In this document: positions 23,603 through 35,688 of the stretch, piece after piece
Layout: every line of letters begins with the position of its first letter
Numbering within the stretch: position 1 is the first letter of the stretch
IMG/VR virus record: IMGVR_UViG_3300031867_000008
Location: 64,001 to 128,000 of that record
Origin: a virus
Lineage: Duplodnaviria; Caudoviricetes
DNA length: 64,000 nucleotides
Reading direction: 5' to 3' (one strand)
The notes under the pieces: model-generated
Told to the model about the DNA's origin: nothing
Databases searched by the model: none
Seen by the model: only the letters and a program-made list of their open reading frames with translations
Program-made: the position numbers and the translations under genes

Positions 23603-24286
23603 TCACATTCCTCTCTTAATTCTTTTTTGAGCAATCTCAAAATAGCTTTCGTCAATTTCTACACCGATGAAATCACGGTTTAATTCAATAGCTGCAATTC
23701 CAGTTGAGCCAATTCCCATAAAAGGGTCAAGTACAATTTCATTTTCCAAAGATGAATTGTCGATCAGTATTTTCATTAACTCAACTGGCTTTTCAGTATT
23801 GTGAAGATTTTGTCCATCCTCACCCTTAGTCTTTTTATTTGGTATTGAAAGAATATCCGAAGTTCCACAATGGTTTATTTTCTTACCCTTGCCTTTTCGG
23901 AAGAAAAGTATATACTCAAAAGAACTCATGTAGTAATGTCCCATTATCTTATTACCTTTGCTCCAAATAAGGCTTTTGACAAACTTGAAACCATTTTGAG
24001 TAAACACGTTCAACATATGTATTAAGTTGATATGATTGCACATTACATAACAATGTGAACCATCTTTCAATACTCTGTAAAATTCAGGAGCATAAGATTC
24101 ACAATCTATATTGTTATAGGTAAAGACTTTGCCTATCATAAATTCTTTTGATTGTAACATTCCACCACTATTTCCTGCGTTTCCTCTGGAAGTAACTGGA
24201 TAGGGGGGGTCAGTTACGATAAGGTCAACACTGTTATTAGGAATACTTTTTATTATTTTTAGACAATTATCTTGAAATAATTTAAT
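23603..24286 (-). CDS. N4/N6 DNA methyltransferase with probable ATT start
   Basis: Catalytic DPPY lies upstream of ATG 24160 in the same frame (IKLFQDNCL...IVTDPPY); also HNTEKP and DPFMGIG. Confidence 0.88.
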   Translation of the reverse strand: MKLFQDNCLKIIKSIPNNSVDLIVTDPPYPVTSRGNAGNSGGMLQSKEFMIGKVFTYNNIDCESYAPEFYRVLKDGSHCYVMCNHINLIHMLNVFTQNGFKFVKSLIWSKGNKIMGHYYMSSFEYILFFRKGKGKKINHCGTSDILSIPNKKTKGEDGQNLHNTEKPVELMKILIDNSSLENEIVLDPFMGIGSTGIAAIELNRDFIGVEIDESYFEIAQKRIKRGM

Positions 24287-25857: not shown

Positions 25858-26082
25858 TTAATTTCTAAGATGATGGTCTACAATTAAGTAAATCAATAAT
25901 ATCACCACGACTAACACCAAGGGAATCCATATTGGTGCAAGCACCCATAACCAAGACCATTTTATGACCCCACAGAGTTTAAGTGCAATAAACACAATCG
26001 TAAGCAAACCACAAAATCCTATACCGCCTGATTGGGTAGACTTGTTGTTGTTATTATTATCAGCCATTTTATCTCCTTTCAC
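25858..26082 (-). CDS. Small conserved phage membrane protein
   Basis: GIGFCGLLTIVFIALKLCGVIKWSWLWVLAPIW. Confidence 0.75.
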   Translation of the reverse strand: MKGDKMADNNNNNKSTQSGGIGFCGLLTIVFIALKLCGVIKWSWLWVLAPIWIPLVLVVVILLIYLIVDHHLRN

Positions 26083-27367
26083 TATACTTTATACCTCAAA
26101 AAGTCCTCGCCATAAATTTCATTGACTGAATCAAACACATACCGCAATCCGAGTCCATGAGAATTGCTTGTCCACAATTTTTTCGGATTCCAGTTCTTCC
26201 ATTCTCCATCGTACTCAGGAGCATTTGGATCATAATAGGGATTGTCTATCCATTCTCCACCTTTTAAACAGAAGTCATATTGTTTTGGGTGAGTTCTTGC
26301 AAGTGCTTGTATTCTTGTTTCGCCTTTTTCTAAATGGACACCTAGTAGGCAGAAGATGCAACCTGACCTTCTTACACCAGTTGTTTCTAACAATCCCTTT
26401 TCATTCTCTACAATATCGCCATAAACCGAACATATTTGAATATTGTATCTTCTTATGTATTCAAGAATATCCTGTTCAGTCCAAAAACTTAATGGCTGAG
26501 AACTTGGTTTCTTTCCCTCAAAAGCGTTACAACCTGTTCTTATCCATGATTGTCTACGCATAAGACTTTCTTCTGCCATAGTGCCAAGATAAGGTTTGTT
26601 ATGACTTGCTCTCTGATAAATACCGATAGGAGATTTTTTCATAACATCACAACATTTGCCACTTATAAGAAAAGGTGTGTAAACCAAAGGCAACCATTTC
26701 TTCTTGTTAAACTTTGACTTAACTTTAACATCGTCATAGCTACCCAGAATCCCAAGGAGCTGTTTTCGTCTGTAATTCTCCTGCACTACATGAGTCTGTA
26801 CTGTTGTTACAGTTGTCGATTCTTCTGCCAAGCAACTCTTGTCTCTTTCTGATTGCTGTCTTGAATTGCTCTGATGGGGGGGGGGATTTGGTAGTAACGC
26901 TTGTCGAGTAGTTCTTCTCTCCTGTGTTTCGTTTCCTTGAATCCTCTCTCTGCCCCCCCCTCAGAGGTATTGCTATTTCGTATTCTTCTTGCATAATAAA
27001 TAGCATTAGCAACTTCTTTACTGATTAAAGGATAACCATAATTTCTTATGACGTTTACAAAATTCATCTTAGGAGTCACAAACGTTGCGTTCTTACTTCT
27101 TGCGAATTTCTGAATTTCGGGATATTCAAGCCCTGTGTTGCTAAATACAACAGGAAGTTCAAACGTAGGGTCAATGGCGGCAAGAGTTTTCTTTACAAGG
27201 TCAAGAAGAACTGTGCTGTCCTTGCCGCCCGAGAACGATAGATAAACTTGACCCTCCCAAAAATTGAACCATTCTATAATTCTTGCTTGTGTAATTGCTA
27301 TCTTGCGGTCAAGTGGCAAGACTTGCAGTTCTTTTAGTCGAGCTGCATCATGAATGTCGATTGGCAT
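26082..27367 (-). pseudogene. PAPS-reductase-family gene split at homopolymer tracts (frameshifted or phase-variable)
   Basis: N-half has SFSGGKDS (27367-26807); C-half has CCDVMKK and RSGCIFC (26831-26082); coding-strand G8 (26953-26960) and C10 (26876-26885) lie between them. Confidence 0.85.
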
Positions 27368-28063: not shown

Positions 28064-29170
28064 TTATCCTGCTACCCTTAATCCTTCATAAAGAATATTA
28101 ACAGCAGCATTTACATCTCTATCATGATGCTCACCACAATTAGGACAAATCCACTCTCTTACAGACAAGTCTTTAGTCTCTGTATTCTTATAGCCACAGC
28201 AGTTGCACAACTGCGAACTTGGATAGAATTTATCAATTTGCACCACCTGTTTACCATACCATTCAGCCTTGTAATACAACATTCTAACAAACTCACTCCA
28301 AGAAACATCACTGATAGATTTTGCAAGATTATGATTCTTCATCATATTACTTACTTGTAAATCTTCTAAGCAGATAATATCATAAGTCCTAATCAGTTCT
28401 GTACTCAGCTTCTGTAAGAAATCCTTCCTCTGATTAGTAACCTTCTCCCAAGCCCTCGCAAATCTCACTCTTGCCTTATCACGATTCTTACTACCCTTTG
28501 ACTTTCGAGATAGTTGTCTCTGTAATTTAACAAGTTTCTTTTCAGACTTTGTGAGGTATTTAGGATTGGGTATCTTCTGTCCATAAGAAGTGATAGCAAA
28601 TTCTTTTAAACCTAAGTCTATGCCTACTGAACAACCGGTTTTGGGTAAAGGTTGTTCATCATCTTTTTCAACAAGAACTGAAACATAATATTTACCGCTT
28701 GAAGTTTGACTGATCGTGGCTGACTTTATCTTGCCCATTATGTTAGGGATTCCATGAGCTTTAACCCATTTGAATTTGGGGAGTTTTATTTTGCGGTTAT
28801 CAAAGTCTATTTCTATATTTGTACCAGTTATATTAGTTTTATAAGACTTTTTACTTACCTTCTTGCTCTTGAATTTAGGAAATCCAGTATGTTCCTTAAA
28901 AAACTTTTGATAAGCAGAATCAAGATTATTCACCGCGTTTTGTAAAGAAAATTTATCAACTTCTTTAAGCCATAAATATTCTTGTTTTAACACTCTATTA
29001 ACATAATTCACTATATCAAATTTAGATAAAGAAATATTCTCATTCTTATACTTATCAATTCGATAAGCTAAACATTGATTATAAACAAACCTCACACAAC
29101 CGAAAGTTTTCTGTAATAATATTTCCTGTTCTTTATTAGGGTAAAGTCTAAACTTATAGCTTTTATACAT
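28064..29170 (-). mobile_element. tnpB: TnpB RNA-guided nuclease, no TnpA
   Basis: HTH (YKFRLYP), RuvC D (GIDLG), E (LEDL), D (DRDVNAA), Zn ribbon. Confidence 0.95.
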
Positions 29171-29198: not shown

Positions 29199-29753
29199 TC
29201 ATTCGACTAACGCCCTTTCGTATTTATGTAGTTCTCTCAGTTCCAGCTTACTCGGCAGAAAATCTCTACAAAAGTAAGCTGAACCAAAAGCTGTTCCCTC
29301 AGTAACGTGCTTCATATCACCGTTCATAAAGAACCCGACTCTTGAATCGAAGCAGAGCATTTGGATTTCATTATTAAATATCTTGAACCTTGACTTTCCT
29401 TGAATACTATTGCAAGGGAGCAATAAGGCAAATGGTTTATTGAAATCAAACGCTCTTTCGAGAACTTTATCTTTCTTACTGAATGGTGGGTTGCTTATCA
29501 TGATGTCCCAATGATCGGGTTCGCATTTGAAAAAATCTTTGCCTTCGTCAATGTGAGAGTGAACAACTCTCATGCCCCCCCCCCCTGTGAGGACTTGAAC
29601 AAATGCGGAATATTCTTTATCGAATGGACACCAAATAATTTTGGACTTGTCTGTGAGAAATTCAAGGAGAGGGTCTACGGCATAGAAAGGTGTGTACATT
29701 TCATCACCCGAACTTGTTCTATTAGACGTTAAGTAACCTTTATTCAACGGCAT
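29199..29753 (-). CDS. Small N6-adenine methyltransferase with in-frame G11 tract
   Basis: DEMYTP, WCPFD, SNPPFS; G11 at 29575-29585. Confidence 0.85.
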   Translation of the reverse strand: MPLNKGYLTSNRTSSGDEMYTPFYAVDPLLEFLTDKSKIIWCPFDKEYSAFVQVLTGGGGMRVVHSHIDEGKDFFKCEPDHWDIMISNPPFSKKDKVLERAFDFNKPFALLLPCNSIQGKSRFKIFNNEIQMLCFDSRVGFFMNGDMKHVTEGTAFGSAYFCRDFLPSKLELRELHKYERALVE

Positions 29754-30189
29754 TATTACTTCCTTTCTCAATTCCTATTGCGTTTTCTTTCTCCCAATCC
29801 CATTTATCTTCATTCCATCCAGAACGTTGTCTTAACCCTAAAGCTGTAAGGTTGATTACATTATCACTCATACGATAATCGTCATAATAGGTGTCCACCA
29901 AAACTTTTGCATTTCCTTTGAACTTCGTTACAACACATTCTTCAAAAGAAGCCCGATAGCCACGAGAATTTCTGCCAGAGAAAAGGATCGTGTCACCAAC
30001 GCTTATTTCATTACCGAGATAATCTTTCATCATCAACCATCCCCTTTATGATAAAACCTCGATTTTATAGGTGTTTATTGTCCATTTTTATGGACAATAA
30101 AGCTAAATTTTAGCAATTTTTAAAATATTCGCTAAATAACTGTACAATTATTTGTACTATAAATCATTTAACCATCAACTATTTTTGGC

Positions 30190-32513
30190 TCACGCCCCCC
30201 CTTGCATTGTGCTAAGAGTAGGAGCAAGATAGTCTTTATCATACACCCTACGGATTTGTTCTTTACCTTTAATATCAAGCATACCCATTACAACAATTTT
30301 TGATTCGGTGTTACCACCACAGCCAATACCATGCAGAGTAGGAGAAATACCTTCTTGTGAATAAACTCTATGTCTTGATTCAATCCATTCAGGTTTGTCA
30401 AGGCTTCCCATTGTTTCAATTTCATTTGCGTGAACACTATTATTTTTAGTATTCACGCTTGCTGAAAATTTTCGTCAGAACACTTGTAATTAGGATTATA
30501 CTGACTGCGATATAAGTGTTCAAATATTAACTCAACACAGTTACTCACGAGCGAATTTCCTGCTTGTTTGTACATCTGTGTATCTGACATTCCTATGTTT
30601 TTCACTTTCTGAATATCTTCATCTGAAACACTCATAAGTCTTAAACATTCTGTTGGCGTAAGTTTTCTAATTCTAAATTTCTTCTTATCAATACTCATTG
30701 GCTTATTGCCCCCCCCCCGTTGCGGTTACTAAAGTTGGTGCTATATTCTGTGGATCATATACAGCTCCATGTCCAGCTTTAAAGGCGTTTTCACATTGAC
30801 TGTCATATATTGTTCCAAGAACATTAGGTTTACTTCTGTTAGTCATTGTTATCCTTAACCCTCTCAATTCTATACAAACAACAATTACCACTTGCCATTA
30901 TGGTAGGACAAATCCCCCCCCACTTCCATATCACACAGAACGATTATTTTAGGTTGATTTTTATAATAAGTACTTAATACAGTCGCTGATACTCCAAGCG
31001 CAGACAACACTTCTGAGTGTTGATGAATTTTATTAGAATCAGGAATCAATCTGCCTATCAACATGGGTTTATGAGTTTCGCTTTTCTGTTTTAGATTCAA
31101 TAGTTATCACTCCTGTCATTGATTGATTTCCAAAACCACGCCAATCTCTTGCTTCTAAAGTAGCTGCATAATCAAGTTTCTTATTAAACTGGGTTGCATA
31201 ATTACTTAGTAACACACCCTGATTAGTTGTTGAACTCAACAACACCGGTGCCGTCTCGTCTAAAATTTGAAATTCCTGCATCATATCTTGCCTTGATGCA
31301 GTTTGCTCGGTCAATTGCTCTTGGTTCGTTAAGTGTGAGGTCGATTGTAATTGCTCTCTCTCTCTCTCAATCAAAAGATTATCTTTTTGAACAGTAGAAA
31401 TTGTATTTGTCATACCATCATTTCTCGGAACAGCCTCACGATAATCATTAAAGCCATGCTTTATCTTGCCGCTTTCATAGTCTTTTCTTAGCGACTTACC
31501 CTGTTCGGTGCGCTGCATTTTAAACACATACTATCCTTTTGAACAGTAGTCAATGCGTTTGCGACACTTTCGGTTCTTACTTCAATATTCTGCTCAGTAG
31601 AATTATCATCGGTATATCTACCTCTCGAAACTACAGGGTAATCTTCCTCTGATAAAGTTCCGTTAGCAACAAGTTCATCAATTAACTTGTCAGCTTTTTC
31701 GTTATTTATGTAATACTTTTCATCTACTACATCATCAAGAACATCTTTGAGTCTAAGACCATTATCGAAAGGCTTTGGGAAGGTCATTTTGCCTGTGTCT
31801 ATATCCTTGCGAATTGCTATTCCAAATACTCTTTCGCGATTTTGAGGAACGCCGCAGTTCTTAGCATTGAGAACTTCGTAATAGGTATTATAATCAAGCT
31901 CATTAAGCACCTCTATTAGTTTCTGAAAATCAGGCATAAATTTCTTTGAAATTAAGTTTTTGACATTTTCAAAAAATAAATACTTCGGAGCTTTATTATC
32001 GGTAACAGCTTTTCTTAACAATCGAACTTGTTGCCACAACAATGACGATCTTGTTCCGCTACCCTCTGATAAGCCCTTCATTGCTCCCGCGACAGAAATA
32101 TCCGTGCATGGCCACGAAACTGTCCATAAATCAGCATAAGGTAATTCCTCAATACTGCTTATGTCTCCAAGATTGTTGGATAACTTCATAGCAAGCCAAT
32201 ACTTTTCAAGTTCCTTACTTTTACTTTTTGTTTTCTTGTTCCAATCGTAAGGCTTGTTCTTCTTGAAATCAAATCCTATATTTCTATCTAATAGGTCTTG
32301 CGCCATTTGTTCTCTACTCGGATAATCGGAATAATTCTCGATCATTTCGTTAGTCAAACCGTTATGTATAGCCGCATATGAAACCATTACATCTTTATCA
32401 ATATCAGAAGTACAATTTACTGTTAGGTCAAACAATCCCGTATTCATAATTCCTCGCTCTTGGTTTCCTAACCCTGAGAAAAGAACATTTGCTGACAATT
32501 TAACCTTTTCCAA
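30190..32513 (-). CDS. Split multi-TRD C5-cytosine methyltransferase locus
   Basis: 32513-31488 has FSG, PC, ENV and QNRER (motifs I-VIII); 30698-30453 has RKLTP and KQAGNS (IX-X); TRD-like modules lie between and after these. Confidence 0.88.
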
Positions 32514-33959: not shown

Positions 33960-34017
33960 ATTATACACCACAATAAGCATTTTGTCAAGTACTTTTCAAC
34001 AGTCATTGACGATTTTA
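33960..34017 (-). promoter_or_regulatory. Consensus sigma-A promoter with operator-like motif
   Basis: TTGACA (33983-88)-17-TATAAT (33960-65); 35-bp block nearly identical to 52154-52188. Confidence 0.75.
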
Positions 34018-35688
34018 CAATTTGTTAATATTATTAGAAGTAGTTGTCAACGCCATCGGTAAAACAGTACCCAAATAATAATTCTGGTTACTTACAGTTT
34101 TTTCATAGCTCTTTTCACCCTCAAATTCATTGACAATTTTCTGTTCCTCAGAAGTCATATCTTTATAGGTTTTAGTACCATAGTCATTAGGAAGAAAATT
34201 CTTTTTCTTTCCTGCAAAGATATTCCATTTCTTTAACAGTTCTTCATTGGTGAACCACAAATGAATAGTTCCCTTTTTCTTGAACTCAATATCAAAGAAA
34301 GCACAATGTATTTTTTCTCCGTTATAGTTCTTACTGCTCTGATAGCTGCGAATGATCCAATCAACTCTATGCTCTGCTGTAAAGCCACCATTTAAAAATA
34401 TGAGTATCTTTTCTATTTCATCAAGTTTTTCTTCTGCTTTCCACAGATCCCAACTATTACAATACCGAGCATCGAATACACCATAGCAAGGAATAATGAT
34501 TTTCTTATTTAATTTGTAAGCATCATTTGTACACCAACCATTATAATAATGAACGTTACTGCTGTTACTCATGCTGTTTTTATAAGTGAGTTTATCGAAC
34601 TGTTTTAAGATAGCATCTTCCATATTAGTTGACATACGTTTTGAAAGTTCAAGTTGAATTTCTTTAATGTTGCTTAAAGTAAAATCAAATGCTCTGAATT
34701 GTTCTAAGTTTGCTCGAAAATAATCTCTTGTTGCCTGTGTGAGCATAGGAGCAATAGCATCGCTTGAAAACAATATGTTCCAGTATTTAGCTCTAAGTTC
34801 TCTAAGAAATGCGTTGTGTTTTGAATACTTTTCATTATCACTATCACGAGAATTTATGTGTATACCAATCAAAGCGTTGTCACGTTCTCCTTTTGGAATG
34901 ATATTTTCAAACCTATCAAACGTGTCAATTAAACTCAATCCTAAAATACACTCGTCATTGTACTGTTTAAGAACGTTAGCAATTACATCGTTAGTCGCAA
35001 GCTGATAATCGTTGCTCATACTATCATACTTAGGCTTGTATTCTTGCGCTCGATTCATTTTGGTGAACATATCGTAATCATACTCTATTGTAGGAATATC
35101 AATATAAACAAGAGCTATTTCTACATCAGTTTTACGTTCGCTGTCAATGAACTCATCTTGTAAATATTCAATATCAGCGTGATATTCATTTAACTTATTT
35201 ACAAGGTCTTGTCTTATGTTGCTATAAGGATTCCTTAAAGTTTCAGCGTTGAGAATACAAACAATCTGACCGCCAGTTCTGCATAACTCTATTGCTTTGA
35301 GCAAATGCTTATCTCCCTCGATAAAAGGTGGGTTCATAGCAATTAAATCATATCTCGAAAAGGTGTCCCATGTTAAGAAGTCAGCTTGTGTAACATTATA
35401 AGCATTTAGAATTGTTCCACTTATTCTTTCGTCTTTAAGAATAGCTACAAGATTAGGATCGATTTCTACACAGTCAATTGAAACATTCCATTTGGAAGTC
35501 CTGTCATAAAGATCGTACTTTGAACACTTCTCTTTTTCTTCTTTAATAAACGTGTTTTTCAACCCTTTTATTATGTCACCCTTACCAGCAGAAGGTTCAA
35601 GAATTGATTTAACCTTGTGCCATTTTACTTTATTGTACATCTTTTCAACAAGTGATAAAGGTGTAGGATAAAACTGTATTCCAAACAT
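34015..35688 (-). CDS. Adenine methyltransferase fused to DUF4942
   Basis: QFYPTP, LEPSAGKG, MNPPF, FKKKGTIHLWF. Confidence 0.85.
   Translation of the reverse strand: MFGIQFYPTPLSLVEKMYNKVKWHKVKSILEPSAGKGDIIKGLKNTFIKEEKEKCSKYDLYDRTSKWNVSIDCVEIDPNLVAILKDERISGTILNAYNVTQADFLTWDTFSRYDLIAMNPPFIEGDKHLLKAIELCRTGGQIVCILNAETLRNPYSNIRQDLVNKLNEYHADIEYLQDEFIDSERKTDVEIALVYIDIPTIEYDYDMFTKMNRAQEYKPKYDSMSNDYQLATNDVIANVLKQYNDECILGLSLIDTFDRFENIIPKGERDNALIGIHINSRDSDNEKYSKHNAFLRELRAKYWNILFSSDAIAPMLTQATRDYFRANLEQFRAFDFTLSNIKEIQLELSKRMSTNMEDAILKQFDKLTYKNSMSNSSNVHYYNGWCTNDAYKLNKKIIIPCYGVFDARYCNSWDLWKAEEKLDEIEKILIFLNGGFTAEHRVDWIIRSYQSSKNYNGEKIHCAFFDIEFKKKGTIHLWFTNEELLKKWNIFAGKKKNFLPNDYGTKTYKDMTSEEQKIVNEFEGEKSYEKTVSNQNYYLGTVLPMALTTTSNNINKL

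Follow-up and report, generated by a model that had tools for sequence, protein, structure and literature searches.

A phage cytosine methyltransferase encoded in pieces, with repeat tracts that may gate its target-recognition modules

Is a methyltransferase gene that is scattered over three reading frames a ruin, an artefact of sequencing, or a working enzyme made in pieces? The question is raised by a locus on the minus strand of a virus of the class Caudoviricetes (IMG/VR record IMGVR_UViG_3300031867_000008), which was analysed within a stretch of 64,000 nucleotides (nt), hereafter the window, comprising bases 64001–128000 of a 140,956-bp record with direct terminal repeats and 35% G+C. An initial annotation, made from the sequence alone, had described here a C5-cytosine methyltransferase split over several open reading frames (ORFs), together with about nine modules resembling target-recognition domains (TRDs) that were joined by slippage signals. 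The ORFs, modules, repeats and slippery heptamer that it listed were all found at the coordinates it gave. The multi-piece locus is real and not an artefact, and we think it likely that it encodes a working multi-TRD C5 methyltransferase in which repeats gate modules and with which the phage varies its methylation specificities.

Seven loci from independent assemblies were compared: that of the window and those of the related contigs L003, L136 (to which L137 is identical), L138, L139, L140 and L141. In the window, the minus strand from 30168 to 32513 encodes a catalytic ORF (alpha), four short TRD-only ORFs, an ORF with motifs IX and X (gamma) and a trailing ORF with two TRDs (delta). The nine TRD-like modules are spread over these seven ORFs and three frames; eight of them lie beyond alpha, between or after alpha and gamma, and two are downstream of motif X. 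Alpha (31488–32513, 341 amino acids (aa)) covers positions 38–248 of PF00145 in a profile search (E value 3e-42), and its residues 10–271 match M.MpeI, M.HhaI and M.HaeIII in the PDB. Motifs I (FxGxG), IV (PC), VI (ENV) and VIII (QxRxR, here QNRER) are readable in its translation, the C, ENV and QNR columns are invariant in an alignment of 28 sequences, and the last 40 residues form a complete TRD (TRD1, about 31518–31634). Gamma (30453–30698, 81 aa) has its own ATG and matches PF00145 positions 271–322 (E value 1e-7), carrying motifs IX (R.LTP.E) and X (GNS/A) with invariant R, T, E and GN columns in the alignment. Its frame differs from that of the preceding TRD in all six loci in which this junction is present. 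As judged from the translations, motifs I–VIII and IX–X lie on separate neighbouring genes, and the two halves of PF00145 on two ORFs, with the nine TRD-like modules, bear out the description of a split, multi-TRD enzyme. Because alpha ends in a complete TRD and gamma starts at motif IX, the two would form a two-chain enzyme with one specificity, similar to M.AquI. Clean two-ORF alpha/beta pairs occur in L004 and L143. An inserted element between alpha and gamma, suggested by the frame they share in the window, was considered and dropped, as their frames differ in L003.

The other ORFs carry TRDs only. ORF-B (31069–31527, 152 aa as assembled) starts at a GTG located 6 nt after AAGGA and 9 nt before an ATG, and contains TRD2 (31366–31518), a linker and TRD4 (about 31072–31240); TRD3 (31223–31366) overlaps the linker in a different frame and is out of frame as assembled. 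ORF-C (30885–31100) opens with a TTG that has AGGAG 9 nt upstream, and reads through TRD5 into an out-of-frame tail past a G8 run; a start codon of the form NTG stands at this spot in 7/7 loci. A remnant (30839–30934) represents the C-terminal half of a 'type B' TRD (...CPTIMA...). ORF-E (30703–30846, 47 aa), whose ATG is preceded by AAGGA at 5 nt, encodes TRD7 and ends within a G10 tract. Finally, the stand-alone delta (30168–30456), with TRD8 and TRD9, starts at a GTG that overlaps the stop codon of gamma (GTGA). Of the five small-ORF starts within the window, three are preceded, at suitable spacing, by a Shine–Dalgarno (SD) core of at least 5 nt; the corresponding frequency is 2.5% at random sites and 41% among the long ORFs of the phage. 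Repeats are present at about half of the junctions between modules; the rest are short stop/start overlaps, identical across the loci, in each of which the start codon (ATG, GTG or TTG) keeps its position. Thus, the view that the modules are joined by slippage signals holds for about half of the junctions, and does not extend to those where a conserved overlap provides each module with its own start.

The TRD-only proteins belong to sizeable families. Homologues of ORF-B were called as separate ORFs in 48 cases, and the delta family comprises 28 stand-alone protein clusters, 44–96% identical; delta is strongly conserved, though no frame change can place it between motifs VIII and IX. The same types of TRD unit are found in one frame between these motifs in L004, L143, P0047, P0113 and P0131, and 505 representative proteins, from 60 to over 1000 aa long, contain the TRD2 type. 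In P0110, a distant relative, TRD2, TRD3 and TRD4 share one frame, which on this comparison is likely the ancestral state. Searches of Pfam and PHROGs with the TRD-only ORFs returned no match except a faint one of ORF-C to phrog_4092 (function unknown, E value 0.008). The locus has several tandem TRD units, as the multispecific class does, with TRDs placed off the catalytic chain, which in that class carries them all.

The comparison across related phages, proposed in the initial annotation, returned the same piecewise layout in all six related contigs, so that the split-frame arrangement is kept in seven loci. The alpha ORFs of the related loci are 77–92% identical to that of L136, taken as reference, to which the window is closest (92%). 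A contig search with ORF-B among viral contigs gave L003 only, and a metagenome scan added L141 and distant lineages. Named phage records contain no close relative: they gave only four short matches, at 74–76% identity, to genes of other phages, three of which are cytosine methyltransferase genes. Ratios of nonsynonymous to synonymous substitution rates (dN/dS) were estimated by the Nei–Gojobori method over the seven loci, in the own frame of each piece and in shifted frames. Every TRD module in its own frame gave 0.08–0.27, while the shifted frames of the same alignments gave about 1–2 as a rule (0.95–9.2). The values are 0.11 for alpha and 0.09 for gamma, 0.11, 0.10 and 0.26 for TRD2, TRD3 and TRD4, 0.13 for ORF-C, 0.21 for the type B remnant, 0.11 for ORF-E and 0.08 for delta2, an alternative form of delta. 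For the TRD-only parts, three phylogenetically independent pairs agree with these estimates, with pN/pS of 0.20–0.29, each at P<1e-10. Since the own-frame values are low and the independent pairs concur, decay is excluded as the main explanation of the layout.

How the pieces are connected depends on the repeat tracts. Changing the tract lengths in silico gives the following products. At the (GA)7 tract (31354–31368), (GA)6 yields TRD2 followed by TRD3 (100 aa), (GA)7 yields TRD2, linker and TRD4 (152 aa), and (GA)8 leaves a 66-aa stub. Shortening the G10 tract (30709–30718) to G9 yields a 130-aa fusion of TRD7 to motifs IX–X; shortening G8 (30914–30921) to G7 joins ORF-C to the ...CPTIMA... 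piece; and shortening the G7 run inside delta (30195–30201), which removes its last 9–10 residues, to G6 regains the full tail, whose frame ends at 30168. These products reproduce exactly those foreseen in the initial annotation. No combination of tract lengths yields a single ORF.

The natural variation points the same way. L003 and L141 are 96% identical and, apart from one of 3 nt, their interior indels, three in number, all change the frame and fall in poly-G tracts; by one of these, the locus passes between the TRD3 and TRD4 states. The tract at the TRD2 junction, (GA)7 in the window, is (GA)14, (GA)9, G9, G8, G8 and G8 in the relatives. Both states of this junction are common in public assemblies, the TRD4 state in about 14 protein clusters of 133–149 aa, and the TRD3 state in all five inspected of about 28 clusters of 98–107 aa. 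The poly-G tract before gamma is G10 in the window, G7 in L003 and G6 in L139, all of them unfused. A natural TRD–gamma fusion, P0054 (128 aa, cluster of 20), has the very junction that had been predicted, a second (P0067) carries a different TRD, and unfused forms are represented by P0049 and P0051. Further tracts lie within modules, and whether they are in frame differs from locus to locus. Thus, repeat length sets the reading frame, ON and OFF forms both exist among relatives, and the predicted alternative products, TRD7 fused to motifs IX–X and TRD2 with either TRD3 or TRD4, occur in nature. At the tract before gamma, contig L141 breaks off in a G13 run (L141:4547–4559); an assembly break at this point is expected if the tract length was mixed in the sample.

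The TRD3/TRD4 switch has a feature of its own. To reach TRD4 from TRD2, translation passes over TRD3 in the +1 frame, which is the linker of ORF-B and shows no constraint at the protein level (dN/dS 0.89). This bypass frame is nevertheless free of stop codons in 6/7 loci, while only 1.2–2.5% of synonymous recodings, given the TRD3 protein and the phage's codon usage, would keep it open. It is closed in L138 only, where an inserted ORF has destroyed TRD4. The recoding comparison thus indicates that selection preserves the open bypass frame across TRD3. As for the insertions in or just after the TRD array, the ORF in L138 (L138:4293–4814) has no domain match, and those in L140 (L140:4598–5338 and L140:5720–6400) have weak matches to HNH_3 or NUMOD1.

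Could the pieces instead be joined during translation? A programmed −1 shift that appends TRD2 and later modules to alpha, followed by further shifts, would produce one or a few long polypeptides, and the initial annotation had proposed such a link between alpha and the next module. Indeed, the heptamer T_TTA_AAA (31524–31518), read in the zero frame of alpha and overlapping the GTG/ATG starts of ORF-B, is a canonical X_XXY_YYZ sequence that 7/7 loci share unchanged; L139 has a stop codon directly after it, and in P0109, a 55% relative, the tail of TRD1 and TRD2 are in one frame. What is missing is a conserved structure beyond the heptamer: the consensus computed with RNAalifold reaches −10 kcal/mol, its covariation term is unfavourable, and the helix takes in the heptamer, which is then itself paired. 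Moreover, the downstream frame has a start of its own, the GTG with AAGGA and the nearby ATG described above, and this arrangement can explain the conservation of the heptamer, because its bases are read in two frames and include a GTG start with a suitably spaced SD site. The other fixed junctions would need shifts in both directions, share no common signal and have an NTG start each, and in distant relatives with a clean alpha/beta split the subunit boundary falls between other TRDs and is an ordinary stop/start overlap. On the sequence evidence, frameshifting at the heptamer is possible, yet it is not needed, and programmed frameshifting as the explanation of the locus is unlikely.

We give each of the remaining alternatives still less credit. 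Storage of silent cassettes, in which out-of-frame modules serve recombination (for example, between poly-G tracts) and are not translated in place, would account for a deletion in the window that joins two such tracts and for the varying module content among relatives, and purifying selection is possible in silent cassettes too. It is nonetheless very unlikely, given that the locus lacks both inverted repeats and long flanking direct repeats, its sole notable repeat being a 46-nt paralogy between TRD1 and TRD2 at 72% identity, that deletions are irreversible, and that the start codons, SD-like sites and selected open bypass frame point to translation in place. Hardly more can be said for a decaying pseudogene, that is, a once-continuous multispecific methyltransferase broken by inherited ancestral frameshifts. 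The many frame breaks, the loss from the window of about 270 nt between two poly-G tracts, the truncated last ORF and the endonuclease-like insertions in the arrays of L138 and L140 would all suit it; however, each module is under strong purifying selection in its own frame with shifted controls at about 1 or higher, close strains differ by non-triplet indels at repeats only, start codons are kept at each break, and the overlapping frame is held open by selection, which together make decay a poor candidate. The least probable explanation of all is that sequencing or assembly errors in homopolymers have broken a true gene of one or two continuous ORFs. Several breaks do fall in G7–G10 runs, where assemblies are least reliable, and contig L141 terminates in its G13 run, but half of the breaks are away from repeats and identical in seven independent assemblies, two modules follow motif X, ON and OFF forms each recur in many-member clusters, and a single ORF is unreachable by any tract length. 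The initial annotation had itself argued from the repeat-free junctions and the modules after the C-terminal ORF that simple sequencing error does not explain the layout; both arguments are borne out, and the six independent relatives with their low module dN/dS speak against decay as well as error.

We therefore return to the working enzyme in pieces, for which the following mechanism is proposed. Alpha and gamma would provide the two-chain core with its one specificity, and slippage at the poly-G and (GA)n tracts would change the connectivity of the remaining modules. The tract after TRD2 would select TRD3, TRD4 (via the stop-free overlapping frame) or neither; the poly-G before gamma would leave TRD7 apart or fuse it to motifs IX–X; and other tracts would turn single modules on and off. 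Repeat-gated modules may in this way add or swap specificities, and slippage, by altering module connectivity, would cause the phage population to hold a changing set of methylation specificities, most plausibly as a hedge between shielding from the host's restriction enzymes and exposure to methylation-dependent ones. For TRD3, TRD4 and TRD7, which can be fused to the alpha-side or gamma-side pieces, no new biochemistry is required. ORF-C, the 'type B' ORF of the relatives and delta are always on TRD-only ORFs, and would therefore act in trans or have another role. Enzymatic activity and targets, as well as docking of delta, ORF-C and ORF-E in trans between alpha and gamma, are what we infer. 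A stronger proposal is that the 50–100-aa TRD-only proteins are free-standing C5 specificity subunits that sit between the catalytic and the IX–X chains, with the set of subunits chosen by the repeats; this we put forward tentatively, holding it somewhat less probable than its negation. Such a three-part plan would resemble, by analogy, that of Type I enzymes.

A model of the complex, as the initial annotation had suggested, was built from alpha, gamma and delta in their L136 versions, which are 90–94% identical to those of the window, and delta alone was scored. The score of 0.65 (best of three controls, 0.00) passed a mark that was reached by 58/80 solved complexes and 2/110 mismatched pairs. 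In the best run, residues 71–96 of delta, its second TRD, lie against motif VIII of alpha and the N-terminus of gamma (motif IX), a modelled position that corresponds to the canonical TRD slot. The pass suggests compatibility, not binding, and may reflect the likeness of the chains to solved methyltransferases.

Several points weigh against the mechanism proposed here. In the complex model, contact agreement among the three runs is at least 0%, and the partner has a predicted local distance difference test score (pLDDT) of at least 54, which is low, so the prediction passed its mark without settling on one pose. We know of no C5 methyltransferase that accepts a free TRD subunit, and for pieces devoid of catalytic or closing motifs a mode of action is yet to be proven. 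In most consensus sequences, the greater part of the repeat-gated modules is out of frame; errors of assembly could account for some of the differences in tract length among assemblies; and the rate and reversibility of slippage within one population are surmised from differences between strains and contigs. Furthermore, part of the window's copy may be on its way out, since one and a half modules are gone from it and its last ORF is cut short. As assembled, its ORF-B is in the TRD4 state, TRD7 is unfused and delta is short of its last residues. Alignment with L003 and the module maps show that the G8 run is the joint of a deletion between two poly-G tracts, at which the stretch missing relative to the relatives amounts to one module and the first half of the next. 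Both modules are present in L003, L136, L138, L139 and L141, and the type B remnant is homologous to the second half of a complete module in L138 and L140. The G7 product at this position, with the sequence GGICPTIMASG, is correctly predicted as a join; owing to the deletion, of which it is a remnant, it would contain half a TRD only.

The locus does not stand alone in its genome. G/C runs of at least 6 number 13 in the 141-kb genome, compared with 5.2 expected, and seven of the nine runs of at least 7, together with the sole GA/CT repeat, fall within 6.7 kb (window 24203–30921/31368). This stretch is a DNA-modification island that encodes an N6/N4 methyltransferase, a Dam-class methyltransferase and the C5 enzyme, in addition to a split PAPS-reductase-domain gene and a small adenine-methyltransferase-like ORF; a DUF4942 protein is encoded just outside it (34015–35688). 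The PAPS-reductase-domain gene (26082–27367, minus strand) consists of two out-of-frame halves that match PF01507 positions 2–46 and 62–161, and homopolymers at 26876–26885 and 26953–26960 lie in the N-terminal ORF, just upstream of the join; from this arrangement it is probably another repeat-gated DNA-modification gene. The adenine-methyltransferase-like ORF (29199–29771, minus strand; phrog_799, NPPF motif) has an in-frame 11-base G run (29575–29585) that codes for a run of glycines. In the region 23603–24209 (minus strand), the N6_N4_Mtase ORF begins at profile position 32 of 221, and a 7-base homopolymer (24203–24209) lies 43 nt upstream of its start, a placement by which this tract may gate the N-terminus. 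An intact TnpB (OrfB_IS605 with a Cas12f-like TNB; 28064–29170, minus strand) is also present in the island, and L136 has a TnpB near the same locus. The longest homopolymer of the genome, a G14 at C1:50738–50751, is outside the window and far from the island. Beyond this group of phages, the unrelated lineages L144, L150 (a 180-kb contig) and L154 have G7–G10 tracts and frame breaks in multi-TRD C5 regions, and in L150 a TRD module follows motif X as well.

How does this locus compare with known systems? The multispecific C5 enzymes of Bacillus phages are single polypeptides in which one catalytic core carries 2–4 tandem TRDs in one frame, without repeats. Their TRDs are of about 40–50 aa and lie between motifs VIII and IX, and each is thought to set its own target. 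The present locus is likewise phage-borne, with one catalytic core and several TRD modules; unlike those enzymes, it has nine modules on seven ORFs in three frames, some of them past motif X, and they are repeat-gated. M.SPRI, M.Phi3TI, M.Rho11sI and M.H2I are the multispecific enzymes concerned (Trautner et al. 1996, PMC450048, as listed in PMC12707154). In M.AquI, motifs I–VIII and IX–X are on separate chains that assemble, in M.EcoHK31I motif IX alone is separate, and detached fragments of monomeric C5 enzymes complement each other (PMC3404938). The distribution of motifs over two polypeptides is the same here as in M.AquI, and the two chains would assemble. In contrast to these two-chain enzymes of one specificity, however, the locus has at least three classes of piece, including TRD-only ones, and their connectivity is switchable.

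Frame switching by repeats is best known from bacterial phasevarions, in which coding repeats in Type III mod and Type I hsdS genes shift the frame, and slippage turns methylation on or off or alters its specificity (PMC7383803, PMC9577141, PMC4889913). The simple-sequence repeats in the coding region of our locus change the frame in the same manner. Phasevarions, though, are global regulators built on cellular N6-adenine systems of Type I, III or IIG, whereas here the enzyme is a C5 methyltransferase of a phage, the switched unit is a single TRD in an array, and one switch chooses between two TRDs by means of an overlapping frame. For phages, bioRxiv 10.1101/2025.10.21.683753 cites poly-G tracts in receptor-binding genes of Fletchervirus (Sorensen 2021) and contingency loci in T2/T4, and mentions, without its having been studied, a poly-G in the methylase gene of Bordetella phage BPP-1. 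Such loci and ours share hypermutable homopolymers in phage genes that create subpopulations; those loci concern host recognition and other genes, while target-recognition modules would be switched here. No published description of TRD-level switching in a C5 methyltransferase was found in the literature.

If the proposed mechanism is true, it would represent a novel means by which a cytosine methyltransferase changes its specificity and would define a new class of phage contingency locus, the modification island as a whole carrying the repeats of the genome. Methylation lets phages escape restriction, yet each motif may expose them to methylation-dependent nucleases, and a switch for each module would let a phage population hedge across hosts with different defences, its gene content unchanged. 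If, in addition, the TRD-only proteins work in trans, the accepted plan of C5 enzymes, with one chain or at most two, would need widening, and the modules would constitute a natural kit of interchangeable DNA readers. For annotation, the risk with loci of this kind is that they are taken for pseudogenes or for errors of assembly.

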